Source: Promethearchaeota archaeon
Lineage (GTDB): Archaea > Asgardarchaeota > Lokiarchaeia > Sigyniarchaeales > SOKP01
Reading direction: 5' to 3'
DNA length: 64,000 bases
Assembly (NCBI GenBank): GCA_048938855.1
Contig: JBHLLT010000001.1
Span: 1 to 64,000, forward strand
Shown here: piece by piece, positions 7,313 through 63,847 of the stretch
How the letters are laid out: every line of letters starts with the position of its first letter
Position numbering within the stretch: the first letter of the stretch is position 1
Made by a program: the position numbers and the translations under genes
The notes under the pieces: generated by a model
Seen by the model: only the letters and a program-made list of their open reading frames with translations
Told to the model about the DNA's origin: nothing
Database searches by the model: none

Positions 7313-7696
7313 ATGTCATTTAATGATAAAGTAGTAATTGAAAGTATTAATAAAGAACTTGAAAGATTAGAACACTTAGGAGAAATTATAGGTACTGCAG
7401 TAGTGAAGCGAAATGGTTTACTTGTGTCATCAAGATTACCAAGAGATATTGACGATAGAAAACTAAGTGCTTTATCAGCTACCATGTTCGAGGGCATCGA
7501 AACGGCTACTTCGAGTTTTGAAAATAATCAAATTAAGAATATTACTGTTGAATATTTAGATTACCAATTGATAGTCGTAGGAGTAAATGACAAAATTATT
7601 TTGGTTTCTCTATCTGAAATAAATGCAAATCTTGGTTTGATCTTTATCGAAATTGAAGAAAGCATAAAAAATATCAAACAAATTATTGAGAAGTGA
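7313..7696 (+). CDS. Roadblock/LC7 domain protein
   Basis: IGTAVVKRNGLLVSS, LSALSATM, NLGLI pattern; 127 aa. Confidence 0.9.
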   Translation: MSFNDKVVIESINKELERLEHLGEIIGTAVVKRNGLLVSSRLPRDIDDRKLSALSATMFEGIETATSSFENNQIKNITVEYLDYQLIVVGVNDKIILVSLSEINANLGLIFIEIEESIKNIKQIIEK

Positions 7697-7702
7697 TTTA
7701 CC

Positions 7703-8440
7703 ATTTTAACAGAAAAACAAAAAGAGAGATTTACAAGACAAATTATTTCTCCTTTCATTGGAGAAAAAGGACAAGAAGTGATATCGAAAATTAAAGTTCT
7801 ACAAATTGGAGTTGGAGGTTTAGGTTCACCTTTTGCTTTATATCTTACAGCAGCAGGTATAAATGAATTAACGATTATTGATAATGATACCTTAGAAATA
7901 TCTAATTTACAAAGACAAATTCTTTACAATGAAACTCACATCGGTAAGGAAAAAGCAAAATCAGCTAAAGATGTATTGCTTAAGCTTAATTCAGATATTA
8001 AAGTTAATGCTTATAAGGATTATATTGATGAAAATTCTATAAAAAAATATCTAAAAGAAACTCAATATGATTTCATTGTGGATTGTTCTGACAATTTCCA
8101 GACTAAATTTTTAGTTAATAAAATAGCAGTAGAGAACAATTTAAATTGTGTTATTGCAGGTATCAAAGATTTCTATGGACAAATTATAACAATCAAACCT
8201 AAAGAAAGTGCTTGCTATCAATGCATTTTTTCAGTGATGGATTCTCCCCCTATTGAAGGCCCTTTACCAGTAATAGGCGTTACTCCTGGAATTCTAGGAA
8301 CTTTGGAAGCTTTAGAAGTGATAAAAACAGCTCTAGGACTGCCTAACTTGGAAAATAAACTTTTAATGGTTAATTTAATAGATATGAGTTTTAATATAAT
8401 TGATATCGTAAAGAACGAAAATTGCATATGCTCATCATGA
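7703..8440 (+). CDS. ThiF/MoeB/HesA E1-like adenylyltransferase (UbaA-like); probable ATT start at 7703
   Basis: GVGGLGS, SNLQRQ, DCSDNF, ACYQC. The frame upstream of the track start (7778) encodes the conserved N-terminal motif ERFTRQII...GEKGQE. The only plausible start after the in-frame TGA at 7694 is ATT 7703, behind GAGAAGTGA. Confidence 0.85.
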   Translation: MLTEKQKERFTRQIISPFIGEKGQEVISKIKVLQIGVGGLGSPFALYLTAAGINELTIIDNDTLEISNLQRQILYNETHIGKEKAKSAKDVLLKLNSDIKVNAYKDYIDENSIKKYLKETQYDFIVDCSDNFQTKFLVNKIAVENNLNCVIAGIKDFYGQIITIKPKESACYQCIFSVMDSPPIEGPLPVIGVTPGILGTLEALEVIKTALGLPNLENKLLMVNLIDMSFNIIDIVKNENCICSS

Positions 8441-8464
8441 ATACGTAAAAGTTAAAAGAAAATT

Positions 8465-9013
8465 TTAAAATTTCATGAAATCTGGATTTTTGCCAAAAAA
8501 TTCTTTATAGGTTTTACCATCTTTGGCATATTTGTCTGATGTTTTCTCACCTATGAAAATTTCGTCCTCTGGTAGATTTCTAAGAAATTTAGCTGGAACT
8601 CCAGCCCACAATTGTTTTGTTGGTACTTCTTTATTAGTAATCACAGCTCCAGCTGCTATCATTGAGCCATCATTCATTTTAGTATTATGGAGTACATTAC
8701 TACCAATACCAACCAAACAGCCATCTCCTATTTCTACTGGCCCATGGATCATTGCATGGTGACCAATAATGCAATTCGAGCCAATTTTTACGGAAGTTCC
8801 TTCCTCAATGTGAATTGTAACATTTTCTTGTATGCTAGTTTTTTTTCCAATCTGAATTAGCCCCTGATCTCCTCTCAGAATTGCTCCAAACCAGATATTA
8901 CTCAATTTTCCAATAACTACATTCCCTATAATTACAGCGGTTGGTGCAATATATGCAGTTTCATGGATTTGTGGTTTTTTCCCTGTATGTGGACATGGCA
9001 TAATTATTGGCAT
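8465..9013 (-). CDS. Gamma carbonic anhydrase family hexapeptide-repeat protein
   Basis: IWFGAILRGD, IQENVTIH, IGHHAMIHG, WAGVPAK. Confidence 0.92.
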   Translation of the reverse strand: MPIIMPCPHTGKKPQIHETAYIAPTAVIIGNVVIGKLSNIWFGAILRGDQGLIQIGKKTSIQENVTIHIEEGTSVKIGSNCIIGHHAMIHGPVEIGDGCLVGIGSNVLHNTKMNDGSMIAAGAVITNKEVPTKQLWAGVPAKFLRNLPEDEIFIGEKTSDKYAKDGKTYKEFFGKNPDFMKF

Positions 9014-9022
9014 AATTAATCA

Positions 9023-10696
9023 TCAATCAAATAAATTGGCTTCTTTTATTATTTTTTTATGATCAAATGCAAATTCTAAATCTTTCAATTTCTCTTTTGG
9101 TATAAGTTCTACAACTTTGGCATCATCACCACATCTCATGTCAGTAGTATCCTCAACAATACATTTAAATGCAGTGCTATGAATTTTCCCACGTGGATCA
9201 CGTCCTTCTTCATCATAAAAACCAATTTTTTCTATTATTCTAACAGATAAGTTTGTTTCTTCCTTAATTTCTCTAAGCAATGCATTTTTTGGCTTTTCAC
9301 TTTTCTCAATAAAACCTCCTGGAAGTGCATAAAATCCCTGAAATGGAGGATATTTACGCTTTATTAGGACAATATTTCCTTTTCTATCTTCAATAACAGC
9401 ATCGACAGTATATCCAATTTTCACTTTCTTGACCTGCATTCTCATATATATATTAAATATTATTGTAACAACTAAAATCCCTGTAATTATCATAGCAATT
9501 ATAAAGTTTAACAGAAAAGTTCCAATGTCCCCTTCCTGTAAACTGAAAGCAATCATAATGACTCCACCTAAATCTGCTAAAATTCCCGCTCCAAATAATA
9601 GGTTCAGTAAATTAAGTCCTTTCTCAGTTCTTTGTTGAATTTCTTCATTTTTCTTTTGATATAATTGTTGCATTGAGTCATAAATGATATCAAATTTTTT
9701 ACTAATTCTCTTTACAATGCCTTCTATCTTAAATTCATTTAAGAGATGCTTTAGCACCGTGGTATAATGTTGTCTCCTATTATAATCCAATTCATTATAA
9801 ATTACACTTAGATTTGTTTGGATTAAACCCCTTAAAAATCTTAAATTTCTTATTTTTCTTTCAATAGTCTCAATATCCTTGAATTCTTCTGATTGGGCTT
9901 TTAAAAAGAGAAGGTCAAGAGACTCGTTAATCAATCTTAATGCAAATAATATAGCTCTTATTTTTGGTGTTGGGGAAATAACAAATTCTTTCATATAAGA
10001 TTCAAAAAAATTTTCATAATTTTCTTCTGCCATATATATAAATCCAGAATTTCTTCGAATAAAATGTAACTCAGATAGTCTATTAGACAAATTATTTTCA
10101 ATACGCCTATCATAAAGGGTTTCAGAATAATCTTCCCATTGTCCTGAATATATTTCTGTCCAGTATCCTATATCTTTTTTATGTTTGTTAATATTGTGTT
10201 TTGTCCATTCTATAAGATCTGGTTTTATTTTATTAGAAGTGACAAATACATAAATAGGGCTTTCTAAATCAAAAATAACGCCTTTACTTTCATCTTTTTT
10301 GGAGTAATCTCGCAGAAAGGATAACAATATTTGAGGAATCTGTTGAATATAACTTGATTTTATCTTTTCCTTTTTCATAGGTTCATCCTTATAATATTCC
10401 ACATCAAATTGAAAAAATCCAAGGGTATCATATTCCCTTTGACTGTTTTCATCCGCATAAGGAAAATTTTCTAAATAAGGTATCCACTTACATGATAAGT
10501 AGATATGTTTTGCTATGTCAATAATTGTATCTCCAAGTTCTTCCCGAATTTTGTAATAAATATCATCTTTTCTTAGATTATTTAACCGTTTTTTTACCTG
10601 TTCCTCAATTTCTTGGCTTTTTTTATTTCCATCAATTAAAGATGTGTTCAAAAATGTGGAGATGGCCCAATATTCCTCTTTATATATAAATTCCAT
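9023..10696 (-). CDS. Fusion protein: helical N-terminal domain, 2 TM helices (CorA-like layout), C-terminal Nudix (ADP-ribose pyrophosphatase-like) domain
   Basis: Nudix box GGFIEKSEKPKNALLREIKEETNL with GRDPRG and AFDH; two hydrophobic helices at about aa 361-417. Confidence 0.75.
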   Translation of the reverse strand: MEFIYKEEYWAISTFLNTSLIDGNKKSQEIEEQVKKRLNNLRKDDIYYKIREELGDTIIDIAKHIYLSCKWIPYLENFPYADENSQREYDTLGFFQFDVEYYKDEPMKKEKIKSSYIQQIPQILLSFLRDYSKKDESKGVIFDLESPIYVFVTSNKIKPDLIEWTKHNINKHKKDIGYWTEIYSGQWEDYSETLYDRRIENNLSNRLSELHFIRRNSGFIYMAEENYENFFESYMKEFVISPTPKIRAILFALRLINESLDLLFLKAQSEEFKDIETIERKIRNLRFLRGLIQTNLSVIYNELDYNRRQHYTTVLKHLLNEFKIEGIVKRISKKFDIIYDSMQQLYQKKNEEIQQRTEKGLNLLNLLFGAGILADLGGVIMIAFSLQEGDIGTFLLNFIIAMIITGILVVTIIFNIYMRMQVKKVKIGYTVDAVIEDRKGNIVLIKRKYPPFQGFYALPGGFIEKSEKPKNALLREIKEETNLSVRIIEKIGFYDEEGRDPRGKIHSTAFKCIVEDTTDMRCGDDAKVVELIPKEKLKDLEFAFDHKKIIKEANLFD

Positions 10697-10801
10697 AGTG
10701 GTAAATTATTTTTAATTGAAAATTTTAATATTAATAAAAAAAGGACTTATTTGTATTAAATTCTTTTAATATATAATCTGTTTTAAATTTCAAAACCTAA
10801 A

Positions 10802-11743
10802 ATGATGACAAAAGAATTACAACAGGACATTCTTAGATTAAAAAAAGAGAAAGACATTCTTATCCTCGCACATTATTATCAAACTATAGAGATTCAAGAA
10901 ATTGCTGATTATGTAGGTGATTCGCTTGGATTATCTCGTAAAGCTAAAAATATTGATACTAATTATATAATATTTGCAGGTGTAGATTTCATGGCTGAAA
11001 CTGCTTCAATCATTAATCAAGATAAACATGTTCTGATACCTAATTATGAGTCTTGCTGCCCAATGGCCGCTTTTCTTACACCCGAAATGGTAATTGAATA
11101 TAAAAAAGAACATCCTGGACTTCCAGTAGTGGTATACATTAATTCAACAGCAGCAGTTAAAGCTGAGTCCGATATTTGTTGTACATCTTCAAATGCAGTT
11201 AAAATAGTTGAAAAGGTTAGTAACGAATTCAATGTGGATTCTGTATTGTTTGGTCCGGATGCAAACTTAGCAGATTATGCTGAACAATTATCTGGTATAA
11301 AATGTATTCAAATGCCTGATATTGGGCATTGTTATGTACATTCACAGATCACCCTAGAACATATTAATAAATCTCAACAAGAACATCCTAACGCTCTAGT
11401 CATGGTCCATCCTGAATGTATCAGGGAAGTTAGAGATCGTTCTGATTTTGTTGGGTCAACAGCTAAGATGTATAACAGAGTTAAGAATAGTAACCATAAA
11501 GAAAAAGAGTTTATCATTGGAACAGAAATTGGACTTATACAACGTATGGCACAAGATTTTCCAGATAAAAAGTTTTACCCAGTAAAAGAAAAATTAATTT
11601 GTTATAATATGAAAAAACACAACCTAGAGTTAATTAAATATCTGCTTGAAAACTCAAACGACACAACTTTTGAGATTAAAGTTCCTTCAGAAATTGCCCA
11701 ACGAGCCATAAAACCAATTCAACAAATGCTGGATTATTCATAA
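10802..11743 (+). CDS. nadA: Quinolinate synthase A
   Basis: LAHYYQ, VGDSL, FMAETA, CPMA, VYINS, CTSSNA, CYVH, HPEC, C..MK. Confidence 0.97.
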   Translation: MMTKELQQDILRLKKEKDILILAHYYQTIEIQEIADYVGDSLGLSRKAKNIDTNYIIFAGVDFMAETASIINQDKHVLIPNYESCCPMAAFLTPEMVIEYKKEHPGLPVVVYINSTAAVKAESDICCTSSNAVKIVEKVSNEFNVDSVLFGPDANLADYAEQLSGIKCIQMPDIGHCYVHSQITLEHINKSQQEHPNALVMVHPECIREVRDRSDFVGSTAKMYNRVKNSNHKEKEFIIGTEIGLIQRMAQDFPDKKFYPVKEKLICYNMKKHNLELIKYLLENSNDTTFEIKVPSEIAQRAIKPIQQMLDYS

Positions 11744-11888
11744 GTTCATAGAATTTTTATAAGAAAAGTATATTGTTAAACTGTCAAACTTTATTTTATA
11801 TTATGTTATATCTTTTTTGATTTCTTATATTTTGGAACAGTCATATCATCTACATAGTCCTATGAATTTAAAAAAAAATGATAATGGA

Positions 11889-13499
11889 CTAAAAGAAGGA
11901 TGTTATTTTTCTTTGATTTCTTTTACGATCTAACCATTTCTTAAAATCATTTGTTACTCTCCCCGACCATATGGCTTTTTTTATGGTTTCTTGATTAAAT
12001 CTATAAATATCTTGATATGTAAACTTATGATATTTCATAAGTTGTCTCATTTTTATTAGCCATTCCACAAATTTTTTGTATAGCTTATTATCTGATGAAG
12101 CAACTCTATTGTATGAATTCTCATAAAACATTTTATCATCTTCTGTATAACCTGTGAAAAATCTATAATTTTGATTCATCCAAAAAATCTTTTCCGTAGA
12201 TTCTGAATATTTTTTAATATTGCAGTTCCATAATTTTATTGTTTCTAGGGTAGGGATAGCGTTTAAGTTCTCTGGTATTTCAGTTATTGTGGGATTATTA
12301 GATAAATCAATAAGTTTAAGATTAGTTAAATTTTCAATGCCTTCAATTTCTGTAATTCTGTTATTTCTCAAAAACAGCTTCTCTAATTTCTCAAGATTTT
12401 CCAATCCCTCTAGTTCTGTTATTTCATTGTTATTTAATCTTAAAATATGTACATTTGAAAATTCCTCGATCCCCTTCAAATTAGAAATTTGATTATTGCT
12501 TAGATCTACTTCATTCACAGCATCAAAATTATCATTTATTGCATTTAGATTTGAAATCTTCCTAATGTTTTGATTATTCAAAAAAATTTTATCATTTCTA
12601 AAAAAGGCTACAACCCTATCTTTATATTTTATAAAATTAAACTCAAATTCATAGTCTTTAAAATACTCAAGATGTTTATTTACATATTGAATTAATGGAA
12701 ATTGGTTTCTTCCTTTTAAGATTTTATAGACATCTTTAACCAAACCATCTCTATAGTCTTCGGGAATATCATATAAGATTTTTGAGATAATTAATGAAAT
12801 ATTTTCAATTCCAAAATCCCTGATAATTCTATGGATTAAAAAATTTATTTGAGATGATAAATCTATACCTGGATCATATTCAATTAAGGCTCTAAAATCA
12901 GTTGTAACATCGCGTAAAAAATTCGGACTCAAGTCATCGAAAATGCTTTCAAACTCATCATGGTTTAAATATCTCAAATATCCATTTTGAGTTAGAAATT
13001 GAACCACAGTAGGATGTTTACTTGCAAGCCTAATAGCTATCTCCTCGGAAAATACTCTTTTCGCCAATGGATCTCCAACTTCAGTTAATCTCTTTAATAA
13101 TGGAAAAGCTAAATTTCTATGAAGAATTCTTGTATCATAACCATTTTCCGCCCACACTTGGATATTTGAACAGTGTCCTTGAAACTCTTCTTCGGGGGTG
13201 ATTCTTCCGGTTATATGGTTATGATTTCCTTCCATTGATCTATCTAACTTCTCCGCGGCTTCATCAATAGATTCAATCTCATCATATTCTTCTATTCGAT
13301 CAACAGGGATATTAAGCAGTAAGTACATACACTGCTGGAATCTACGTCCTTTTACATAAATCTGAGTTTGTCCGCCTTCAAGCTTCAATTTAAGGTAGTC
13401 ATTAATTTTAAATTCTTTTACATTAGAGAGAGGTTTGATTGAAATGAATAAGACAATTATTGAAGTAAGTAATATAATGTAAATACAACTTAGAAACAT
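11889..13499 (-). CDS. Leucine-rich repeat protein with Loki-type N-terminal domain and C-terminal PIP-box-like motif (start uncertain)
   Basis: LRRs LSNNQI, LNNNEI, LRNNRI, LSNN. N-terminal KEFKINDYLKLKLE...FQGHCSNIQVW.EN.YDTRILHRNLAFPLLKRL. Ends QRKITSFF. Confidence 0.85.
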   Translation of the reverse strand: MFLSCIYIILLTSIIVLFISIKPLSNVKEFKINDYLKLKLEGGQTQIYVKGRRFQQCMYLLLNIPVDRIEEYDEIESIDEAAEKLDRSMEGNHNHITGRITPEEEFQGHCSNIQVWAENGYDTRILHRNLAFPLLKRLTEVGDPLAKRVFSEEIAIRLASKHPTVVQFLTQNGYLRYLNHDEFESIFDDLSPNFLRDVTTDFRALIEYDPGIDLSSQINFLIHRIIRDFGIENISLIISKILYDIPEDYRDGLVKDVYKILKGRNQFPLIQYVNKHLEYFKDYEFEFNFIKYKDRVVAFFRNDKIFLNNQNIRKISNLNAINDNFDAVNEVDLSNNQISNLKGIEEFSNVHILRLNNNEITELEGLENLEKLEKLFLRNNRITEIEGIENLTNLKLIDLSNNPTITEIPENLNAIPTLETIKLWNCNIKKYSESTEKIFWMNQNYRFFTGYTEDDKMFYENSYNRVASSDNKLYKKFVEWLIKMRQLMKYHKFTYQDIYRFNQETIKKAIWSGRVTNDFKKWLDRKRNQRKITSFF

Positions 13500-13627
13500 A
13501 TTTGAGAAAAACTTGGATTTTTGGTAACAGAGTTAAAGATAATTCCCTTTTTCAATATTAAAACCCCTATGATTTTAAAATTTATAAATAGATTTTTTCT
13601 TTACTACAGAGCTACATTATAAAAGAT

Positions 13628-14728
13628 TTAAACGGGTATAAAAGTAAGCATATTAAAATTCAGATCAATATTAGAACTATCTAAAATAGCCTGTTGTATC
13701 CGTTTACCTTCTTCTGTTAATGATAACTTCTTTGATTGCGCAACTCCTTCCATAAATTTTTTTCTTTCTATATCTAAAAAGCCCATTTCTATCGCATTCT
13801 TAATTATTAGATTCAGTACTAATAATTGAAATTGTTCCTCAATAGCACCCCATATTAAGCCCATTTCCTTTAATTGTTCTGTTAATTCTTCAGCTAAAAT
13901 GTCCAGATCATAAATCATATCATAAATGCCTTCTTGAAGATTGATAATTTCATCTATCAACTTATCTTTTATGAGTCTAATCGTTGTAGTTCCCAGTAAA
14001 TCCTCTTCGTGAAAGAAGAAATCATTCTGTTTGCGCTTAATTAAATAGAAACCAAATTCATTTTTTATCAGTTTCATTCTAGCAAGATAATTAATTGCCT
14101 CTTTTGATACTTTATAGATTATGCAGAATTGCTCTAAATCAATTTTGTATCCTGCAAATTTTTGAGTATTTTTCTCATCTAAATGCCAATACTTTCTAGC
14201 TAAAGCACCTTGGCCTAGAATCGAGTTATAAAATATATAAAATAGTGATAAATATAGATCTCTGTCTTGCTGTAATTCAAAAAAATTATCTCCAATTTTC
14301 GATACGATTCTTACTATATGAATTATAAATGGGTCTTCTACATTTATTTCTTTATAAAAATCTATTAGGTTCTCAAGCTTTCGGACATTTTTTTTTAATT
14401 CATTAACAATAAATAGTTCATCTTTTAACTTTAAAGGTTTTTCTTCGAGTTTTTCTATTCCCTTATCGGTTATAATATATCCACGGTACTGTTTATTTGT
14501 TTGCTTATCTGTAATTAAACGTTGTTCAACATTTTCATTTTTTAGATGAAATGTAATATATTTAGAAACTGTAGATCTGCTCAAATTTGAATATTTAATC
14601 AAATTAGTAAATCTTTGCGGACCTAAATTTCTAAGAATGAATAATATCCTCCGGCTATTGTCATCAATACTACTTGATTTTTTCAATAGCTCGCTCGCTA
14701 ATTTTTTTGATATGTTCCAGCTCTCCAT
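13628..14728 (-). CDS. Winged-helix DNA-binding protein (ArsR/MarR-like N-terminus) with an unknown C-terminal domain
   Basis: RRILFILRNLGPQRFTNL...LSRSTVSKY...YIITDKG. Confidence 0.7.
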   Translation of the reverse strand: MESWNISKKLASELLKKSSSIDDNSRRILFILRNLGPQRFTNLIKYSNLSRSTVSKYITFHLKNENVEQRLITDKQTNKQYRGYIITDKGIEKLEEKPLKLKDELFIVNELKKNVRKLENLIDFYKEINVEDPFIIHIVRIVSKIGDNFFELQQDRDLYLSLFYIFYNSILGQGALARKYWHLDEKNTQKFAGYKIDLEQFCIIYKVSKEAINYLARMKLIKNEFGFYLIKRKQNDFFFHEEDLLGTTTIRLIKDKLIDEIINLQEGIYDMIYDLDILAEELTEQLKEMGLIWGAIEEQFQLLVLNLIIKNAIEMGFLDIERKKFMEGVAQSKKLSLTEEGKRIQQAILDSSNIDLNFNMLTFIPV

Positions 14729-14922
14729 AATAATATTATATTAGTCTAAATATATAAAATTATACCTTTTTTCTGAACTTAGTTCGAACATATACTGAAA
14801 TACAATTAATTATGATTTTAGTATGTTTCTGATTAATTAAAGGTAAAGCTTTAAAAATTAAGCCTTTAATATAAGAATTTGATAGTAGATTCAAAATTAC
14901 TATAATTGGAAAATAATTTATT

Positions 14923-15123: not shown

Positions 15124-15280
15124 TAAATGCCTAAATAATCATTGAAGAGAAAAGCAAAAAAAGACCTATCACTTCTAAACCATAGTTCGAGATCTTGAAC
15201 GATAATCCTTATCTTTCCTTTCTAATAATTATTATGTAATATAAATCAGTTTATGAAAAATTAATGGGGTGTGATAAAAA

Positions 15281-15535
15281 ATTACCCAATATAGGTTTAG
15301 GCTAACGGGAGTCCCTCCAGATCAAGCTATAAAATTAATTGAATTAGATCCAAATAATTCAATTGCAGAAATTAAAAAAACCGTCCAACGTGAGTATAAG
15401 TTAAATCCAATTTTAGCTATACAATTCATTTTTAAAGGGAAAGTATTACCTGATCAATTAAAGTTTGCAAAAATTGGTATTCATCCAAAAAAAGATGTAA
15501 TTACTGTAATGGCTACTCAAGCTGGCGGAATTTAA
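15281..15535 (+). CDS. Ubiquitin-like protein (84 aa, ATT start), C-terminus ...QAGG-I
   Basis: Absent from the ORF track. Translation (M)TQYRFRLTGVPPDQAIKLIELDPNNSIAEIKKTVQREYKLNPILAIQFIFKGKVLPDQLKFAKIGIHPKKDVITVMATQAGGI*. In-frame TAA at 15275; SD-like GGGGTGTGA at 15266-15274. Confidence 0.88.
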   Translation: MTQYRFRLTGVPPDQAIKLIELDPNNSIAEIKKTVQREYKLNPILAIQFIFKGKVLPDQLKFAKIGIHPKKDVITVMATQAGGI

Positions 15536-41951: not shown

Positions 41952-43472
41952 TTAAAGGATTTCACTGATATCTCGATATAACAATTCTCTATTGACTTGA
42001 AATTGATCGTATGTGATAAATAATTTTCGAAAAGATTCTAAACTACCTAGAATCGCAGCTCCATTAAAAATAGCATATTGAAGATTATCTGGTACGAAAA
42101 ATTTGAGGACTTTACTTGCTGATTTAATAGTTTCAGAGAATTCTCTGGCAGCTGATTTTTCCTCTATTACTTTTGGGATATCGGGAATTTCTATTGATTC
42201 TATAGGCTTTCCACAATATGGGCAGAAAACAGAATCAGAATCAGGAATTTGTTTTCCACAATTTGGACAATTACCTTTTAATGGTTTTTGTGTACCATCA
42301 TCTTGCTTACTAATTTTAATCTTGGGCAATACTAATACACCACCACATGAAGGACATAAATTCTTTCCATCACTGAGATCTATAAATGCACCACAGTGAG
42401 GACAATTATCTGCCTTCTTTTTAGAAATTTCTACTGCTTGTAACTTAATTAATTCACTTTTAACAGCAGACAGAGGTGTAACTGGTTTTGGAATAGCACC
42501 TAATTCAGGAAGAATTGAATCTAATTCCACTTCAAAACGTTCTTGAAATCCTGAATATGTGAGATTTCCTCCAGAAAAAACTATATGAGATAAAAGATCA
42601 TACCAATATAAACTATCAATATTTCTTAAACTTGCGAGAATTGCTTGAGGAATATTCATGACATTACTATAACCTAGCATTGCAGGATTAAATAATACTT
42701 CTGGAGCTTGATAGAGAATATAAGTTGGAACATTAATAGTTGATCCATCGGGCATGGGAACTCCAAACATATCTCCGGATTTTATAGATTTATTTGCATC
42801 TAAAACAAAGTAACAGTTTTTTTCTTTTATTTCTTGAATAATTTCATCTGCTGCACTTGAAGCAATACTCACACCTTCTCTCATTAGTAGACTTTTTAAA
42901 TTTTGATTTACATCAATTCCTGCTAAAGAGAGTTTTTGAACAGCATGTTGCACAATTTTACCGTTTATTATTGGTACAATCCAGGTTAATCCATCCCCCG
43001 ATTCGATTACTAATCCTGTCGTTAACCCTACACTAAATAACGATAATAATGGTGTTGGCATCATCATTAAACTATTAACCCGGTGTGTTTCAAAGAAAAG
43101 TCGAGCAATATATTCTTTTGTATCCTTATTTATGAAAGGCGATTCACAATAAAAAACTGGATATTTAGACAGATCTTCGATTCTAAGTAGTGAATAAAAA
43201 ATATAATTCAAGATTTCATAGTAACTTTCCCAATCCATAATTTCTCCACGACTTAAAGGATGTTTGATTTTTAATACCCCCCTCATCCGTGATACATCGT
43301 TTCCAACATAAATACTTCTAGCACTTACATCGACCATGACAGATTTGTATTTTTCAGTTCCAGTAATACAAGGGAATACAAATCTTGGTCCAGGTTCTCC
43401 CGCAAATCCTATTTTGACATATGCTGATCCGATATCAATTATAATTGGGGTTCCAGCTAAAGGTAGTGCCAT
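41952..43472 (-). CDS. Actin-family protein (Asgard actin/ARP) with a zinc-ribbon insertion
   Basis: IIIDIGSAYVKIGFAGE..PRFVFP, IKHPL.RG.I.DW, VGLTTGLVIESGDGLT..VPI, EIKEKNCY, PEVLFNP, VFSGG, NGAAILGSL; insert carries CPHC, CPSC, CPNC, CPYC. Confidence 0.93.
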   Translation of the reverse strand: MALPLAGTPIIIDIGSAYVKIGFAGEPGPRFVFPCITGTEKYKSVMVDVSARSIYVGNDVSRMRGVLKIKHPLSRGEIMDWESYYEILNYIFYSLLRIEDLSKYPVFYCESPFINKDTKEYIARLFFETHRVNSLMMMPTPLLSLFSVGLTTGLVIESGDGLTWIVPIINGKIVQHAVQKLSLAGIDVNQNLKSLLMREGVSIASSAADEIIQEIKEKNCYFVLDANKSIKSGDMFGVPMPDGSTINVPTYILYQAPEVLFNPAMLGYSNVMNIPQAILASLRNIDSLYWYDLLSHIVFSGGNLTYSGFQERFEVELDSILPELGAIPKPVTPLSAVKSELIKLQAVEISKKKADNCPHCGAFIDLSDGKNLCPSCGGVLVLPKIKISKQDDGTQKPLKGNCPNCGKQIPDSDSVFCPYCGKPIESIEIPDIPKVIEEKSAAREFSETIKSASKVLKFFVPDNLQYAIFNGAAILGSLESFRKLFITYDQFQVNRELLYRDISEIL

Positions 43473-43571
43473 TTTTTATCACAATTATATTTTTTGATGA
43501 ATGTTATTAATAATCTATATTTATGATTTTTATAATTATTTTATAGAATTTAAAAGTAAGAATTATTTTAA

Positions 43572-55907: not shown

Positions 55908-55914
55908 TTTTTAT

Positions 55915-56009: not shown

Positions 56010-56046
56010 AAATTTATTAAATTGAAAAGATAATTAATTTATAGTA

Positions 56047-56556
56047 ATGAATAAAATTGATGAAAATTTTCAATTTGAAGCAATAATTCGAGAAATTGAA
56101 AAAGAACTAATAAAAATAATTGTTGATTTGGGAAGTAATAGTCCTTTATCTCCAAAATTAACTGAAATTTTAGGTTATCTATTACTTCACGATGAGTTAA
56201 CTCAAGCACAATTAAAGGAATTAACAGGATTCTCCATTGGTACGATATCATCTAATTTAAACCAAATGGTTAGTTTAAATATTGTCCGTAAGGAATTAAT
56301 CCCTAAAACAAGGACATACAAATATATTTTCCTTGGAAGAAAAGGGAGTATTGAAATGCAAGCGAGTTTTATGAAAGTAGAAACTGTTTCTTCATCGATA
56401 AATTTCTTTGAACAAAAACATGATGAACTATTGAAATTGGAAAATGAGAAGGGGTATGACTTATTAAACGAAAGAGTAGAATCAATGTTAAAATTTTTCC
56501 AATGGCATAAAAAAGTTATAATAGAGAAATATAAAAAATTAGGAGTTATGAAATAA
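56047..56556 (+). CDS. GbsR/MarR-family transcriptional regulator
   Basis: EILGYLLLHDELTQAQLKELTGFSIGTISSNL...RTYKY. Confidence 0.85.
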   Translation: MNKIDENFQFEAIIREIEKELIKIIVDLGSNSPLSPKLTEILGYLLLHDELTQAQLKELTGFSIGTISSNLNQMVSLNIVRKELIPKTRTYKYIFLGRKGSIEMQASFMKVETVSSSINFFEQKHDELLKLENEKGYDLLNERVESMLKFFQWHKKVIIEKYKKLGVMK

Positions 56557-56557
56557 T

Positions 56558-57058
56558 TTGGAAGAAAGTGAGATATTTAGTCCAACTTTATTAAAAATTG
56601 AGGAGGATATTATTCGATTTTTATCAAATTCTCCATTATTTTTCACCAAAGACCAATTTATCAACCAAATTAGGGCATATTTCATAACACGTAAGAATTT
56701 AACGCAAAAAAAGTTACAAAAAATCACCAAATTATCACTTGGTAAAATTTCTCAAGTCTTGAAAACTTTAATAAGGTGGAGATTAATTGAAAAAACAGAT
56801 GTTTCAAGCACAGGAGAATATACTTACAGCATGGAATCGATAGATAAGGCTCTTGTTAATTATTTTACTGTCCTTACAAAACAAATGGAGAAATTTATAA
56901 AACCTTTGGAAGAATTAAAAAATAAATTAGATAATGGTGGTGAGAAGATTAAAAACCTTAGAGGATATGATAAGATTAATAAATTATTACCACTGTTCTT
57001 GGATGCAATTAAGGTTAATATTGAAATTATGAAAGAATTTAGTATAGAATTTTTTTAA
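56558..57058 (+). CDS. GbsR/MarR-family transcriptional regulator (paralogue)
   Basis: QIRAYFITRKNLTQKKLQKITKLSLGKISQVL...GEYTY. Confidence 0.82.
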   Translation: MEESEIFSPTLLKIEEDIIRFLSNSPLFFTKDQFINQIRAYFITRKNLTQKKLQKITKLSLGKISQVLKTLIRWRLIEKTDVSSTGEYTYSMESIDKALVNYFTVLTKQMEKFIKPLEELKNKLDNGGEKIKNLRGYDKINKLLPLFLDAIKVNIEIMKEFSIEFF

Positions 57059-57064
57059 AAATTG

Positions 57065-57085
57065 ATGGGTATTTTGACCCATTTT
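57065..57085 (+). terminator. Possible hairpin plus T-run after the regulator pair
   Basis: ATGGGT-attttg-ACCCAT followed by TTT, 6 nt after the stop codon. Confidence 0.35.
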
Positions 57086-57215
57086 ATTATATATACGGAT
57101 ATCACGTAAAGATAAAATTCTCACATATATTAATTAGTAAAAATTAGTATACGACTAGTTATCAGTAAAATAAGTTTTTTTTGTAGAGTTTTTTTGATAT
57201 TTTTGGTGGAAAAAG

Positions 57216-58517
57216 ATTACTGAAACTGAAATTACTGAGGAAAAAATAGTTCAATATCTTATAGATAAGAGTAAGAGTAAATTTGGGTTATTTTCTATTA
57301 ATTACATTTTAATAAACTGCAAAATTAAAGAGTTATTAGAATTTATTGCTGATTATGGTATATCTCCTCCTGAAAAACCATTTGTGAGTAGACTCGAATA
57401 TATAAAACTTATTTTAGCGCATCTAACTAACATTTATAACTCAACTGATTGGCAAAAAAGATTTGATAATCCTTTGGAATACTGTGGATATGCTGTAATC
57501 AATTCAAAAAGATTCAAAAAATATTTATACAACTTAGATTTTATTGCAAAGCAAGATTTAATTGAGACTTTTGCAGATCATTGTGCAGATCTAGAGATAA
57601 CAGTCCATAATACAACTTATGATTCAATAACACCTGAGATGGACATGTATTTAACTATCAAAAAGTCAAAAGTTAAGACCGCAGCTGTTTTTGTAATGAA
57701 TGGTGTCAATGTTAATGATGAATCTTATGCAGAAACAAAAAAATCTATAAAACAAGCAACTAAAGTTGCAAGTTGGAATATTTTTGTAACAACTCCTATT
57801 GGTGTTCTTAAATTAGGCTTAAAAAATTTAATTCTTGACATGAATAATTTAAACTGTTGGCTATATGTAGTTGATCCCTCACGGAAAATTGTTTTTGGTA
57901 TAAATAAGGGAAGAAAGAATGATAAATTTGATGTTGAAACACGTAATAATTTCATTAAAAAACTTCCTAAAGAACCAATGAGAGCACCTTCACAAGTTAT
58001 AAAATTATCTGACTATTCGTTTGATGAACAGAACTCGTTTGAATCATATAATTTTAGATTATTTGATATCTATAACGACATAGAACATAATAAATTAATG
58101 TTAAAGGAAGCAGATCAACCAAAATATTCAGAGATATTCAGAGATTTGATCATTATGGAAAAATCCAGTGGAACCCCACTAGTTAACTATTCAAGTGAGA
58201 ACTTCAAGGAACAAGCACTAGTATCAGGGTTTCTTACTGCTATGGACTCTTTCGTAACTCAAATTGGGGGCTCAAAAATGGAAGAAATTAATTATAAAGG
58301 TTTGTATGTACAAGCATCTTATGGTGAATCTATTGAAATCGTATGTTTTTTATTCAAGCCGTCAGATTCAAGCTTTAAAGAGCGGCTTAATTACCTTACT
58401 ACTCTTTTTGAAACACTTTATGAAGAACAAATTGAAGAGTTCAAAAGAACGGGTAATATAAATCTATTTGACGAAGATGAGATTCTTTCTATTATGAAAG
58501 ATATCCTTGATATTTGA
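57216..58517 (+). CDS. Hypothetical protein with a C-terminal longin-like domain; probable ATT start at 57216
   Basis: Frame is open from 57198; ATT 57216 follows GGTGGA and adds 56 protein-like codons to the track ORF. C-terminus FRDLIIMEKSSGTPLVNY...LVSGFLTAMDSFVTQI is longin-like. Confidence 0.7.
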   Translation: MTETEITEEKIVQYLIDKSKSKFGLFSINYILINCKIKELLEFIADYGISPPEKPFVSRLEYIKLILAHLTNIYNSTDWQKRFDNPLEYCGYAVINSKRFKKYLYNLDFIAKQDLIETFADHCADLEITVHNTTYDSITPEMDMYLTIKKSKVKTAAVFVMNGVNVNDESYAETKKSIKQATKVASWNIFVTTPIGVLKLGLKNLILDMNNLNCWLYVVDPSRKIVFGINKGRKNDKFDVETRNNFIKKLPKEPMRAPSQVIKLSDYSFDEQNSFESYNFRLFDIYNDIEHNKLMLKEADQPKYSEIFRDLIIMEKSSGTPLVNYSSENFKEQALVSGFLTAMDSFVTQIGGSKMEEINYKGLYVQASYGESIEIVCFLFKPSDSSFKERLNYLTTLFETLYEEQIEEFKRTGNINLFDEDEILSIMKDILDI

Positions 58518-58596
58518 TAGAAGATTTATTAAAGCAGCAATATCAAAATACCAAAAATTCATTGAAATACTTTAATAAAATCCCTCAATAAAATGT

Positions 58597-59511
58597 TTAC
58601 ATACGAGTTAAGTTTCTTCTAGGTAAATTCTGTATTTTGGGGTTATTTATTAACAAATCTAACACTTTAATTATATTCTCTTTATCAGTTTTTATGTTTT
58701 CTGTTTCTATATCAATATAGTTACTCATGTGATCATTAAACATTTGAGATGTAACATTTTCAGTTAAATTTGCTATAATTTCTCTCTCTTCTATTAAATT
58801 TTCAACAGGAGTTAATAACTCAAAATCTCCACTTTTCCATTCGTCCCATAATTCCGAAAAAGGAACGATATTCAATGTTCTAAATCTAAATATCGTAGGA
58901 TTAATCTCAGACAATACTCTTGCTGTTTCTTTTACATGTTCTTCTGAATGTTTTTTTCCTCCTAGACCTAAAATTACATACAAGCTCAATTTAATTCCAG
59001 CATTTAATACTTTTTTTCCTGCCCTAATCATCGATTCAGCATTAGTTCCTTTCCTCATTAATCTTAAAATCTTGCTACTCCCACTTTCTAATCCCATATA
59101 GACAATGTCTAGTCCTACATTTGCCAATTTTTTTAATTCTTCGTCTGATTTTCTTAAGATATCTAATGCTTTCGCATAACAACTTACTCTTGGAACAGCT
59201 TTTAATTTAAATCGAACATATTTTATTATATCTACTAAATAATCTGTTGGAGCTGATGTAGGATTACCCCCTGCTAAGAACACAGGAAATCCATGATAAT
59301 TATTCTCTGCATAATAATCAACATCTCTTTTAACATCTTCTAAAGGTCTAATTTCATAATCTTGCTCAATACCATACATACCTTTGTAGGTTCCACAGAA
59401 CCTACATCGATTCCATGAGCAACCTCCTGTAACTGGAATTAAGACAGACATAGAAGCCCCTTCTACAGGAGGTCTTATTACTATTTGACTAGGGGGCACT
59501 TTTGGTAACAT
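58597..59511 (-). CDS. Radical SAM protein
   Basis: CSWNRCRFC, YMGLESG, ILGLGG, NDHMSNY. Confidence 0.92.
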   Translation of the reverse strand: MLPKVPPSQIVIRPPVEGASMSVLIPVTGGCSWNRCRFCGTYKGMYGIEQDYEIRPLEDVKRDVDYYAENNYHGFPVFLAGGNPTSAPTDYLVDIIKYVRFKLKAVPRVSCYAKALDILRKSDEELKKLANVGLDIVYMGLESGSSKILRLMRKGTNAESMIRAGKKVLNAGIKLSLYVILGLGGKKHSEEHVKETARVLSEINPTIFRFRTLNIVPFSELWDEWKSGDFELLTPVENLIEEREIIANLTENVTSQMFNDHMSNYIDIETENIKTDKENIIKVLDLLINNPKIQNLPRRNLTRM

Positions 59512-59741
59512 CAGAGTAAATAGGAAAATTATATTTGTTTAATATTATTAATCTTTATACACTTTATTTGAATCAACATAGTTTTTTAGATATTACTATT
59601 ATAAATATTAATAACGCTTCACGGAAACTATTTAAGGTGCTAATTATTCAATTTATTAACATTAGAGAATATAAAATTCCAATTAAAAAACCTTAAAATT
59701 CTTTAAGATATTTCTATTATCATTCGAAGATCCATTAAAAA

Positions 59742-60338
59742 ATGAGTTATAATCAAAAAGATATATTATTTAGCTTTAAGATTGTGATATGCGGAGCCAG
59801 TTCAGTTGGTAAGACATCTCTTTTTAATCGGTATTGCTTTAACTCATTTAGTTTTGATAGTTCTCCAACAATTGGGATAAATTTTCATTCTGTTTATTTG
59901 AAAATCAATTTTACAAAAGAAATAAATCCACAGAATGAAAATTATGTAGTAAATTCTATTTTTGATTTTGGAGGGCAAGAAAGGTTTGCTCCATTAATCC
60001 CCAAATTTATAGAAGGCGCAAACGGAGCTTTATTAGTATTTGATTCTACAAGTTATCCTTCTTTTGAACAATTAGATTTTTGGTTTGAAAATATTATTAA
60101 AAATGCGATAGACTCAAAAATTCCAATAGTGTTAGTCGCTAATAAAAGTGACTTAATAGAGAAAACCCCAGAATCAGAAATAATTAAAGATAAACTGATT
60201 TTTGATTATTTAGAAAAAAGAAATTTAGATGGATTTGCACGAACTTCAGCATTAGAAAATTACAATGTTTTAGAAGTATTTAAAGAATTAAATAATAAAA
60301 TGTTGAAAAAAGAACATATCCCATTTGTTGTAGCTTAA
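59742..60338 (+). CDS. Rab-like small GTPase
   Basis: GASSVGKTS, PTIG, FDFGGQERF, NKSD, TSAL. Confidence 0.93.
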   Translation: MSYNQKDILFSFKIVICGASSVGKTSLFNRYCFNSFSFDSSPTIGINFHSVYLKINFTKEINPQNENYVVNSIFDFGGQERFAPLIPKFIEGANGALLVFDSTSYPSFEQLDFWFENIIKNAIDSKIPIVLVANKSDLIEKTPESEIIKDKLIFDYLEKRNLDGFARTSALENYNVLEVFKELNNKMLKKEHIPFVVA

Positions 60339-61408
60339 AATTCTCTCATATAGACAAAATCTGAGAAAATGTTAAAAAAAACTTTCTGTGCCTTATTTAA
60401 ATCAGGATAAATGTCTCTTAAATAGTTTCGAGCTTGTTCTGTTAAGTTTTTGGCTAAATGTTCAGCAATTCGTAAAGTATTCGTATCAGTAAATATCTTT
60501 ACTACTGTATCGACGTCATTATTAGATAGTTTTGGTTTGTTATAAATCTCTGAAATTATTCTTGATTCATCAGGACCAGCATTTTGGATACATAAAATAT
60601 ATGGTAATTTCTTTTGTTTATTTTTAATATCGTTTTTTAAGTCAATAATATCATCCCGAATTGCGTGAGCTTGTCCAATCCGTAACATGGCTTCACTTAA
60701 GGGATTGATTTGATAATGAAGATTTCCTTTAGCCAAAATAGCTCCAATCTTAGTAGATTTTTCAAATATTCTTGCTTTTTGAGATTCTGCTATATTCAAA
60801 TACTGCTCTAATGTCATAGTAATATTATTATAATTCATGTATTCTTCTACTAGTTGCCCTTTCATTAAGTAATCCATTGCTTCTGTGTATTCATTAATTG
60901 CAAATAATTTCAAATTATCTGGGAATTTTGATGATTTTAATATGTTTAATCCTAAAAGATACCCTTGTGTACCACCTAATATTGACATATCTCTACCATA
61001 TAGTCTTATTAATTCATCTTTATTCGGGAGTTCTAAATCCTTATATACTTGATTCATTTCATTTTTTAATTGGACGTGAAATGTAGGTTTCCCTCTTCTT
61101 GTTGTATCGTTATCTAGAAGATCATCATGTATTAAGTGCCCGCTATGTAATAATTCAACGGATATGGAAACTTCATATATTTGTTCTTTTTGATCTTCTA
61201 AATACATAGGATTTACAATTCCCGTAAAAGCGGCAATTAATAATATAGGATGGATTCTTTTTGCTTTTTCATTGAGAATAAATTCTTCTAACTGGTTGAT
61301 AAAATCATTTAGAAGAATATCTTTTTCTTTCTTGTGTAGATTAGCAAAATAGGTTTCCAGTTGCTCATCTACCATCATTTTTTCGGTTTTAAAGAATTCA
61401 TCAATCAT
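60335..61408 (-). CDS. Polyprenyl (GGPP) synthase
   Basis: KRIHP, ELLHSGHLIHDDLLD..TTRRGKPT, GQ, RDDIID. Confidence 0.9.
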   Translation of the reverse strand: MIDEFFKTEKMMVDEQLETYFANLHKKEKDILLNDFINQLEEFILNEKAKRIHPILLIAAFTGIVNPMYLEDQKEQIYEVSISVELLHSGHLIHDDLLDNDTTRRGKPTFHVQLKNEMNQVYKDLELPNKDELIRLYGRDMSILGGTQGYLLGLNILKSSKFPDNLKLFAINEYTEAMDYLMKGQLVEEYMNYNNITMTLEQYLNIAESQKARIFEKSTKIGAILAKGNLHYQINPLSEAMLRIGQAHAIRDDIIDLKNDIKNKQKKLPYILCIQNAGPDESRIISEIYNKPKLSNNDVDTVVKIFTDTNTLRIAEHLAKNLTEQARNYLRDIYPDLNKAQKVFFNIFSDFVYMREF

Positions 61409-61528
61409 GATAAAAATGCAAATTGCTATACTTTGGCTAATGCAATAATATTAATATAAAACATTTAATAATTTAATTTTATTATATATTAAATTTATAC
61501 ATATAATTTAATAAGGAGAGTCTTAAAA

Positions 61529-62041
61529 ATGAAAATAGCGGTAATTTCTGATTCCCATGACCATAAAAATAATATTTTGAAAGCTGTTTCTATTATTAAT
61601 GAAAGAAAAGTTGATGCACTTATCCACTGTGGAGATTATATTGCGCCATTTGTAAGAAAATGGTTTAATAATTTAAATGATTCTATAAAAAATAACTTTT
61701 ATGGGGTGTTTGGGAACAATGATGGTGAAGTATTATTTCTTAAAAAAAATTTAGGTCAAATTTGTGAATTCCCTCAAAATGCTAAAGAACTAATTTTAGA
61801 GTTAGGTGGTAAGAGAATTTTTGTATCACACATGCCCTCAGAAAAAACTATAGAAGCTTTAGGGAAATCTGGTGATTTCGACATAATTTTAACAGGGCAC
61901 ACGCATTTTCTTTCAAATAAAAAGCTAGATAATGATACTTTAGTAATTAACCCAGGTGAACTTTGTGGATATTTAACAGATAAAGCTACATTTGCTATTA
62001 TTGATACAGAAAAAATGGAATCTGAGATAATTGAATTATAG
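61529..62041 (+). CDS. YfcE/MJ0936-family metallophosphoesterase
   Basis: ISDSHD, HCGD, GNND, SH, GHTH, NPGE. Confidence 0.92.
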   Translation: MKIAVISDSHDHKNNILKAVSIINERKVDALIHCGDYIAPFVRKWFNNLNDSIKNNFYGVFGNNDGEVLFLKKNLGQICEFPQNAKELILELGGKRIFVSHMPSEKTIEALGKSGDFDIILTGHTHFLSNKKLDNDTLVINPGELCGYLTDKATFAIIDTEKMESEIIEL

Positions 62042-62143
62042 AATACCATTTTTTTTTCTTTTTGAATAATTAAGTATAAATAGAACCTTTATGATTTCAG
62101 GCTTATTACTTATACTTTTATGTTATCTTTTTTTTTAAATATT

Positions 62144-63358
62144 ATGTCATTACCTTTAGAAGGGAAAATTATATTAGATCTTACGAGAATGTTACCTGGC
62201 CCTTTTTGTTCCATGATTCTCTCTGATCTTGGTGCTGATGTTATAAAAGTAGAAGATCCTCGTTATTTTTACGGTCAACCTCCACCATTCTTTCAAAAGG
62301 GAAGATACCGTGAGAGTGCTTTCAATTCAATCCTTAATAGAAATAAAAGGTCAATTACACTTAATCTAAAAAAAGAAAAAGCTCTTTCAATTTTTTATGA
62401 ATTGGTAAAAAAAGCAGATGTGGTTCTTGAGTCGTTTCGACCAAAAATTACAAAAAAATTAAAAATTGACTATAATACCTTAGCGACAATAAATCCATCA
62501 ATCATCTGTTGTTCCTTAACAGGTTATGGGCAAACCGGTCCATATGAACAAATTGCGGGTCATGATCTTAATTACATTGGAATATGTGGTATTTTAGATT
62601 TAAACAGAGAGAGAAAGCTATATAATAAAGAATTTCAAGAAAGAAAGCCAATTAATCCGGGAGCCCAATTTGCGGATATTGGAGGAGGATTAGTATCTGC
62701 TATCGGAATTTTGGGAGCTATAATTGAGAGGGATAAAAATCTTGAAAAAAAGGGACAATTCATAGATATCTCAATGACAGATTCTGTTTTTTCATTTATG
62801 CCACTTGTAGCAGCATATCATTTTTCTAGAGGATTAAATGATGGAGTAGAAACAGAAAATCCTTTGCATGGAGATTTTCCTTTTTATAATGTCTATAAAA
62901 CTAAAGATAATAAATTTTTATCTGTTGGAATTGTTGAAATTAAGTTTTGGCGACTTTTATGTGAAACATTAGGACGGGATGATTTAATTTCAAAACAATT
63001 TGCCCAAGGAGAAGAAAGAGAAAATGTCTTCGTTGAGCTACAAAAGGAATTTTCGAAAAAATCACAAAAAGAGTGGATGGATATCTTTAAACCTCTAGAT
63101 GTATGTATCATGCCAGTAAAATCTTTTGCTGAAGCAAGTGAAGACCCGCAGATTAAAGCACGAAATATGGTTATTGAAATGAATCATCCAAAATTTGGAA
63201 AGATTAAAAATATTGCTTCACCTATAAAATACTCACGTACACCATTAAAGATAAGATCGCTTGCTCCTAAACTTGGTCAAAATACAAAGATGATTCTAAA
63301 AAATTTAGGTTATTCAGATGAAGCTATTCGAGATTTTAGAAAAAAAGGGGTAATTTAA
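62144..63358 (+). CDS. CaiB/BaiF family III CoA-transferase
   Basis: LDLTRMLPGPFC, DLGADVIKVE, NRNKRS, GYGQTGP, GHDLNY; MSLPLEG (ATG 62144) is the likelier start. Confidence 0.93.
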   Translation: MSLPLEGKIILDLTRMLPGPFCSMILSDLGADVIKVEDPRYFYGQPPPFFQKGRYRESAFNSILNRNKRSITLNLKKEKALSIFYELVKKADVVLESFRPKITKKLKIDYNTLATINPSIICCSLTGYGQTGPYEQIAGHDLNYIGICGILDLNRERKLYNKEFQERKPINPGAQFADIGGGLVSAIGILGAIIERDKNLEKKGQFIDISMTDSVFSFMPLVAAYHFSRGLNDGVETENPLHGDFPFYNVYKTKDNKFLSVGIVEIKFWRLLCETLGRDDLISKQFAQGEERENVFVELQKEFSKKSQKEWMDIFKPLDVCIMPVKSFAEASEDPQIKARNMVIEMNHPKFGKIKNIASPIKYSRTPLKIRSLAPKLGQNTKMILKNLGYSDEAIRDFRKKGVI

Positions 63359-63365
63359 GGATATT

Positions 63366-63734
63366 TTATAGTATCTCTAAAATTAGGATAAGTAGTGCAA
63401 ATATAAGAGATATAAATGTAAAAACTAATAGTATAATAAACATCGGCCAATCTTTTAACTGTCCGTAGAAGCCTGCTGCGTTTATTGTGGAGTAAATAGC
63501 CATCCCAATAGCAATAAAAAATACAGCTATCCCCCAGAATTGATTGAATAATAATCCTACCCCTCCAATTATAAGCATTATGGATGTGAGAAATTCAGCA
63601 ATTAAATGAAAAAATATCTGTGTCGGCTTTGTATTTAATTCAGGTACTTCCTTCTTTAATAATAACATTAACCACATGCATAACATTGCAATTCCTATTA
63701 TTATAATATAAATGGAAGCGATTAATTCGATAAT
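63366..63734 (-). CDS. Small 4-TM membrane protein; probable ATT start at 63734
   Basis: The frame extends 16 hydrophobic codons upstream of track ATG 63686 (IIELIASIYIIIIGIA), completing TM1; ATT follows GGTGGA. Confidence 0.65.
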   Translation of the reverse strand: MIELIASIYIIIIGIAMLCMWLMLLLKKEVPELNTKPTQIFFHLIAEFLTSIMLIIGGVGLLFNQFWGIAVFFIAIGMAIYSTINAAGFYGQLKDWPMFIILLVFTFISLIFALLILILEIL

Positions 63735-63847
63735 CTTTTTCCACCTGCTTATTTTTATTTAAACCAGATTGATTAATCAATTTATTTACTTAAATTATCT
63801 TTAAACTGTATTGATTAAATAATTATCCAATAATAATCGGTTATTTT

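Follow-up and report, generated by a model that had tools for sequence, protein, structure and literature searches.

Near-cognate ATT and ATA codons as probable translation starts in a Lokiarchaeial genus

How is translation initiated on genes that have an in-frame stop codon just upstream and no ATG, GTG or TTG ahead of their conserved coding sequence? Four such genes lie within a 64,000-nucleotide window (contig JBHLLT010000001.1, assembly GCA_048938855.1) of an uncultured Loki-type archaeon (Promethearchaeota; Lokiarchaeia; Sigyniarchaeales), each with an ATT codon a few nucleotides behind a Shine-Dalgarno (SD)-like motif. The original prediction held that this lineage uses AUU routinely, or as a translational control, and thereby hides genes from standard gene callers. 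The observation at the four sites is confirmed in the present analysis. Its interpretation is supported as well, and extends to ATA: dozens of ordinary genes in this archaeon and its genus, including ribosomal protein uS10 and the start-codon proofreading factor aIF1, most likely begin at ATT or ATA placed behind a ribosome-binding site. Two corrections apply, in that ATA is used almost as much as ATT, with ATC also used in relatives, and two of the four sites are species-level shifts of the start rather than conserved ATT starts.

Four coding frames with probable ATT starts

The first site opens an E1-like gene of the ThiF family (7703 to 8440, forward strand) at ATT 7703-7705. The in-frame TGA at 7694-7696 is the stop of the upstream Roadblock/LC7 gene (7313 to 7696, forward strand; Pfam Robl_LC7, 1.2e-10) and lies inside the SD core GTGAT (7693-7697), 5 nt before the ATT. 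The ThiF domain (217.6 bits) spans residues 11 to 241, matching profile positions 2 to 236 of 238, whereas the first canonical codon lies 25 codons downstream. The orthologues of the genus start with ATT (16), ATC (4) or ATA (1), giving 21 of 21 congeneric genomes with an AUH codon, while seven genomes of other families have ATG. Across the 21 congeners the GTGA is conserved but the spacer varies.

The second site opens a ubiquitin-like (Ubl) gene (15281 to 15535, forward strand; 84 residues, ending GG-I) at ATT 15281-15283, with an in-frame TAA at 15275-15277. The SD GGGGTGTGAT occupies 15266 to 15275, including GTGAT at 15271-15275, and GGGTGTGAT is conserved in congeners. The ubiquitin family assignment is confirmed (Pfam, 36.8 bits, 3.4e-09), both it and the ThiF assignment scoring above the gathering threshold. 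The next canonical codon lies about 75 codons downstream. Within the genus the start is ATT in 17, ATA in one and ATG in two of 20 genomes, the two ATG-bearing congeners having weaker SDs, whereas 10 more distant genomes have ATG, and other families have ATG at the same residue.

The third and fourth sites are of a different kind. The third (ATT 57216-57218) opens a 433-residue protein (57216 to 58517, forward strand) 6 nt behind GGTGG (57205-57209), with an in-frame TGA at 57195-57197 and the next canonical start 56 codons downstream. Seven close orthologues of the same length read ATG-ACT/AGC/AGT where this genome reads AAG-ATT, so that the ancestral ATG codon is AAG here (57213-57215). The label ‘longin fusion’ given to this protein in the original prediction was not confirmed, as a Pfam search returned no hit. 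The fourth (ATT 63734-63732) opens a 122-residue membrane protein (63366 to 63734, reverse strand), also without a Pfam hit, 6 nt behind AGGTGG (63746-63741), with the next canonical codon 16 codons downstream. Its orthologues start one codon upstream, at ATA (15) or ATG (4), behind AGGTGA, and the closest relative has AAG-ATA; the N-terminal helix IIELIASIY is conserved. Both sites are therefore recent shifts of the start by one codon. As single-species states, they could in principle be recent loss-of-start lesions. They share the 15-mer GGTGGAAAAAGATTA, which occurs nowhere else in the genome.

All four sites carry GTG at position -10. The 3' end of the 16S rRNA is GGATCACCTCCT, which identifies this GTG as the core of the SD GGAGGTGATC. 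GTG at -10 is also the modal register of ATG genes in this genome. An actin-family gene (Pfam Actin, 6.5e-62) provides a reference case, with the same register in GTGATAAAAA-ATG (43470 to 43482, reverse strand) and the identical context TGTGATAAAAA-ATG. A scan of the window for further AUH starts found none convincing beyond the four, and an Rfam scan of the window returned no hits.

Genome-wide and phylogenetic distribution

Behind a 5-base SD at optimal spacing, long-ORF-opening ATT (40 cases; 8.3x background, p=2e-23) and ATA (22 cases; 5.4x, p=4e-10) are enriched genome-wide, relative to other codons, about as much as TTG and GTG, whereas mock motifs give no excess. Some candidates in the genome-wide list are shadow ORFs, so the counts are estimates. 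In 15 of 20 such genes, a Pfam domain begins, at profile position 1 to 7, upstream of the first canonical codon; examples include SDR, GPN GTPase, uS10, response regulator, CobA and flavodoxin.

Comparison across 20 or more independent assemblies supports the same reading, the AUH codon sitting at the residue homologous to the ATG start of orthologues for the E1-like, Ubl, uS10 and membrane proteins. At the membrane protein, ATA and ATG interchange at one position. uS10 starts at ATA in 20 of 20 congeners, but at ATG or GTG in nearly all genomes of other families and at ATT in one. The aIF1 gene has no canonical start before its zinc knuckle; ATT or ATC is conserved in the genus and sister genera, and ATA, or CTG in one family, occurs in several other Asgard families. 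The ATT of aIF1 sits at a longer spacing (GTG at -13) than the typical AUH start.

A sister family of equal GC shows no significant excess in 1.2 Mb, so the trait is lineage-enriched. The trait is strong in this genus, but its phylogenetic limits are only roughly set, since sampling 400 kb per genome from relatives has low power, one relative (G033) is 54% GC and too noisy, and only 0.4 Mb of another (G111) was sampled.

Alternative explanations

The alternative that survives best, although it remains unlikely, is that a dedicated second initiator tRNA, or a modified C34 as in mitochondrial tRNA-Met (f5C), decodes AUH cognately; AUA and AUU starts in mitochondria work this way. Only one initiator-type tRNA gene (A1:U72, GGG/CCC stem) was found, with the canonical CAU anticodon, and no such tRNA with an AAT, GAT or TAT anticodon was found. 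However, modifications cannot be read from DNA, and tRNA detection in this MAG is incomplete: ARAGORN finds only 13 to 24 tRNAs because the tRNA genes are intron-rich, 24 to 30 genes were found, and the initiator had to be located by motif. A second, unusual initiator cannot be fully excluded.

Initiation at the next canonical codon downstream is very unlikely. Each ORF has a later GTG or ATG, and database calls of relatives are sometimes such truncations. However, truncation would remove the start of the ThiF domain and nearly the whole Ubl and, in other genes, P-loops, Rossmann motifs and nearly half of the uS10 domain. The upstream residues are conserved at the protein level with synonymous changes, and distant orthologues start with ATG exactly at the AUH position.

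Equally improbable is read-through of the TGA at the E1-like gene, or termination and reinitiation without a true start codon, yielding a Roadblock-E1 fusion or coupling independent of AUU. The two ORFs are in the same frame, separated only by TGA plus two codons. However, these two codons are not conserved and in some congeners include a second in-frame TGA, whereas GTGA and the 5-nt spacing are conserved as an SD. Genome-wide, AUH genes follow an upstream ORF less often (ATT 10%, ATA 27%) than ATG or TTG genes do (41% and 40%), which rejects translational coupling as the general mechanism, and the other three sites have no upstream in-frame gene.

The weakest alternative, named in advance as a potential refutation, takes the GTG at -10 (or, at the Ubl gene, an ATG at 15264 joined through the A6 run) as the real start, put in frame by a 1-bp indel through assembly error, programmed frameshift or transcriptional slippage in the A-run; it is contradicted because GTG at -10 is simply the SD core, sites 1, 3 and 4 would need the loss of a base while the ATG-A6 route would need a gain, the upstream ATG is not conserved, and the same spacing recurs in 20 or more independent MAGs while the spacer sequence varies freely and has no conserved slippery site.

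Initiation model and known systems

The best explanation, held with high confidence, is that AUU and AUA (AUC in some relatives) serve as true start codons in this genus. In this model, the SD-anti-SD duplex (GGAGGUGAUC against the 16S 3' end) would place the codon in the P site within a narrow register, the GUG core lying 9-10 nt upstream, and the ordinary initiator Met-tRNA (anticodon CAU) would pair with a third-position mismatch, so that the proteins should begin with Met. The lineage would tolerate this far more than usual, with at least 50-100 genes affected, about a quarter of SD-led starts at optimal spacing and roughly 1.5-3% of all genes. AT-biased mutation would turn ATG into ATA or ATT, the change being retained where the SD is good. 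The codon positions, the SD register, conservation across assemblies, domain coverage and the canonical initiator tRNA gene rest directly on the sequence data, whereas the N-terminal Met, the efficiency of initiation and aIF1 autoregulation are inferred.

aIF1 discriminates against AUU in Sulfolobus, and the AUU of infC is autoregulated (PMC4705826; PMC6237735). That aIF1 is itself most likely AUU-initiated here suggests an infC-like feedback that sets cell-wide stringency, which makes translational control plausible. A more far-reaching, tentative hypothesis is that start-codon stringency is genuinely relaxed under this feedback loop, so that the 50-100 AUH-initiated genes, including uS10, the Ubl protein and its E1-like enzyme, would form a translational regulon whose output relative to AUG genes would track aIF1 abundance.

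Near-cognate initiation is not itself new. In E. coli infC and pcnB, an SD-positioned AUU or AUA codon is read by the normal initiator tRNA, ATT, ATC and ATA are permitted starts in NCBI table 11, and the fidelity factor's own gene (infC there, aIF1 here) carries the weak codon. In E. coli, however, two genes are involved, against an estimated minimum of 50-100 here, a ribosomal protein included, and the fidelity factor here is of the aIF1/eIF1 type rather than IF3. In eukaryotes, the orthologous eIF1 is also made from a suboptimal start site that its own abundance would disfavour (PMC4705826), but this is an AUG in a poor Kozak context reached by scanning, unlike the non-AUG codon with an SD found here, where any such effect is hypothetical. 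Mitochondria use the same set of codons as starts in an AT-rich genome, but rely on a modified tRNA-Met and have no SD, whereas here the SD register is strict and the tRNA gene canonical. Literature searches found no systematic description in Asgard archaea, only a single ‘rare ATT start codon’ of the Asgard tubulin AtubA (PMC13394414), in which a database N-terminus that was too short was repaired by assuming ATT behind a plausible ribosome-binding site. That report covers one gene in a Heimdall-type MAG and treats it as a rarity; here the use is systematic, quantified and conserved across a genus.

As eIF1/aIF1-based AUG stringency is a hallmark on the path to eukaryotic initiation, an Asgard lineage in which about a quarter of optimally spaced SD-led genes use AUU/AUA would be informative, offering a natural system for asking how stringency is set and whether aIF1 autoregulates as IF3 and eIF1 do. 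Gene callers restricted to ATG/GTG/TTG miss or truncate these genes, and inventories of eukaryote-like proteins in Asgard genomes, including ubiquitin systems and cytoskeletal proteins, are therefore biased. The Ubl protein of the window is absent as a called protein from a collection of 5.8 billion proteins, in which its close relatives appear only as wrongly extended or truncated calls.

Four ATT codons in the modal Shine-Dalgarno register

The window corresponds to positions 1-64000 of contig C34 in a 3.95-Mb, 30% GC archaeal MAG of 93 contigs (hereafter G000), whose close relatives are deposited as Promethearchaeota/Promethearchaeia, that is, Loki-type Asgard archaea. Stretches of about 65% GC on two other contigs, C11 and C19, are likely contaminant contigs, in line with the 7% contamination estimate. 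The 16S rRNA ends in ...GGATCACCTCCT, so the Shine-Dalgarno (SD) consensus is GGAGGTGATC. The original prediction described four coding frames lacking a canonical start, each opened by an ATT behind an SD-like motif, and this description holds at every site. Each ATT (7703+, 15281+, 57216+ and 63734-) follows an in-frame stop located 2-8 codons upstream, with no ATG, GTG or TTG in between, and each has a GTG at -10. For first canonical starts genome-wide, GTGA peaks at -10 and GGTG at -11. The GTG at -10, which had been named beforehand as a possible frameshifted start, is therefore the SD core in the modal register and not a candidate start.

The gene at 7703 (gene 1) encodes a ThiF-family E1-like protein, while that at 15281-15535 (+) (gene 2) encodes a ubiquitin-family protein (Ubl) ending in ...QAGG-I, with one residue after the di-glycine, about 7 kb from the E1-like gene. 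Among the eight neighboring ORFs scanned, which include NadA, an LRR protein, a HycI-type protease and a PAS histidine kinase, no E2-, E3- or JAB-type Pfam family was found. The genes starting at 57216 (gene 3) and 63734 (gene 4) have no Pfam hit. The actin-family gene of the window (41955-43472, minus strand) uses the same upstream context with a canonical start, TGTGATAAAAA-ATG, and encodes a 506-aa protein in which an Actin domain (residues 10-323) is fused to C-terminal zinc-ribbon domains. The exact 15-mer GGTGGAAAAAGATTA, comprising the SD, spacer, ATT and one more base, occurs only twice in the whole genome, at 57205-57219 (+) and 63745-63731 (-), both within the window and 6.5 kb apart on opposite strands. 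In both genes, the orthologues have a start codon where G000 has AAG.

Genome-wide enrichment and N-terminal domain coverage

To determine whether such sites exceed chance, every codon placed 9-10 nt after the GTG core of a 5-base SD match was scored for whether it opens an ORF, requiring at least 100 open codons downstream, no canonical start since the upstream stop and, for non-canonical codons, no canonical start within the next two codons. Against a background of 90 ORF-opening instances among 36,519 other codons, ATG is enriched 36-fold (102/1,145, p = 7e-120), TTG 11-fold (35/1,290, p = 1e-24) and GTG 6.9-fold (7/414, p = 9e-05), while ATT is enriched 8.3-fold (40/1,956, p = 2e-23) and ATA 5.4-fold (22/1,639, p = 4e-10). 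In contrast, AAA, AAT, TTA, TAT and TTT sit at 0.7-1.7-fold, ATC and CTG are not significant, and neither a reversed nor a shuffled mock motif gives an ATT/ATA excess. The register profile shows ATT and ATA peaking sharply at distance 10 (counts of 37 and 24, respectively), whereas ATG is spread over 8-13 and AAA peaks one codon upstream of real ATG starts. After background subtraction, this corresponds to about 50 genes with a 5-base SD and about 95 with a 4-base SD, that is, about a quarter of SD-led starts at optimal spacing and roughly 1.5-3% of genes.

Domain coverage was then assessed in 20 candidates whose first canonical codon lies at least 20 codons downstream. In 15 of them, a Pfam domain begins at profile position 1-7, within residues 4-33, upstream of that codon. 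Examples include adh_short (residues 6-198, first canonical codon at 71), Ribosomal_S10 (5-99, codon 49), Response_reg (4-114, codon 22), CobA (7-177, codon 39) and ATP_bind_1 (6-250, codon 20). Similarly, in the E1-like protein the ThiF domain covers residues 11-241, while the first canonical codon is at 25.

Conservation of the start sites and alternative explanations

Comparison with orthologues separates the four sites into two conserved AUH (ATT, ATC or ATA) starts, at genes 1 and 2, and two that illustrate ongoing turnover among ATG, ATA and ATT, at genes 3 and 4. For the E1-like gene, G000 and 20 congeners all carry AUH at the same position (16 ATT, 4 ATC, 1 ATA), behind a conserved GTGA whose TGA is the stop of the preceding Roadblock gene, while the 5-nt spacer varies freely and sometimes holds a second TGA. 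Seven genomes of other families in the order have ATG at the homologous residue (ML..E.ERYQRQI). For the Ubl gene, the genus shows 17 ATT, 1 ATA and 2 ATG, the two ATG-bearing congeners having a weaker SD (GGTTTGA), and 10 more distant genomes have ATG (MVQYRFRL, MAQFRFRL). For gene 3, seven close orthologues of the same length read ATG-ACT/AGC/AGT where G000 reads AAG-ATT: the ancestral ATG is lost and the adjacent codon has become ATT, now at the modal register. For gene 4, orthologues begin one codon upstream with ATA (15) or ATG (4) behind AGGTGA, whereas G000 has AAG-ATT and its closest relative has AAG-ATA.

Initiation at a downstream canonical start and read-through of the upstream TGA are both rejected by these data, as are assembly error and a frameshift from the GTG at -10; the ATG at 15264 that could feed a frameshift into the Ubl gene is not conserved. 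With GGTGA in the modal register, the SD's own TGA is in frame with the start codon two codons upstream, so that any upstream translation in that frame stops just before the start; at the E1-like gene (SD core at 7693-7697), this TGA is the Roadblock stop. Coupling to an upstream ORF is not the general mechanism, as only 10% of ATT genes and 27% of ATA genes directly follow a long ORF, against 41% of ATG and 40% of TTG SD-led genes.

The interpretation that this lineage uses AUU routinely is thus supported, with high confidence, and extends to ATA, although initiation at these codons is inferred from sequence alone. AUH starts behind an SD are known from bacteria (infC, pcnB) and are allowed by table 11. 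For Asgard archaea, the literature search returned a single-gene remark, a ‘rare ATT start codon’ for AtubA (PMC13394414), and no systematic description. What is new here is the unusual scale of the inferred near-cognate initiation, its occurrence in an archaeal lineage and the involvement of aIF1 itself.

Initiation machinery, database entries and distribution

A single initiator-type tRNA gene was found (at about 9180-9305 of contig C31, minus strand), with A1:U72, a GGG/CCC anticodon stem, a CAU anticodon and an intron; no initiator-like tRNA with an AUH-reading anticodon was found. About 2.6 kb away on the same contig, the aIF1 (SUI1) gene (C31:6347-6670, plus strand; locus L118:1420-1740) has no canonical start before its zinc knuckle and begins at an ATT with GTG at -13. 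ATT, or ATC in one sister genus, is conserved behind AAGGTTGTGA in the genus and sister genera, while within the class two other families have ATA and others have GTG or TTG. In other Asgard classes aIF1 mostly starts at ATG, but one family shows AGGTG-N7-CTG and two show AGGAGG-N9-ATA with no canonical start before the zinc knuckle (loci L207 and L209, from another Asgard family, and L198, L201 and L202). Ribosomal protein uS10 (contig C70:173543-173845, minus strand; locus L180) starts at ATA behind GGTGA in G000 and in all 19 congeners examined, whereas nearly all genomes of other families have ATG or GTG and one has ATT. Published work shows that aIF1 rejects AUU complexes in Sulfolobus, and that IF3 (AUU start) and eIF1 (poor context) autoregulate (PMC4705826; PMC6237735). 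An analogous loop for aIF1 in this lineage is an inference.

These starts have consequences for databases. A search of 5.8 billion predicted proteins does not return the Ubl of the window, and its near-identical relatives appear only with spurious N-terminal extensions (MWKKITQYRF..., VKLKITQYRF...) or as truncations (LTGVPPDQ...).

In 1.2 Mb of G032, a genome from another family of the same order (31% GC), the same codon test gives ATG 40, TTG 3, ATT 4 and ATA 2, with neither ATT nor ATA significant, and 0.4 Mb of an AT-rich genome from another class shows no signal with the same 5-base SD test. Heavy AUH use is therefore enriched in this lineage and is not a simple result of AT-richness, although isolated plausible cases exist elsewhere, for example a MazF-like gene behind GGTGAT-N5-ATT. 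The same holds for heavy TTG use: TTG starts behind an SD are also much more frequent in G000 (35 in 3.95 Mb) than in the sister-family genome G032 (3 in 1.2 Mb), which suggests a general relaxation of start-codon choice, not one limited to AUH.
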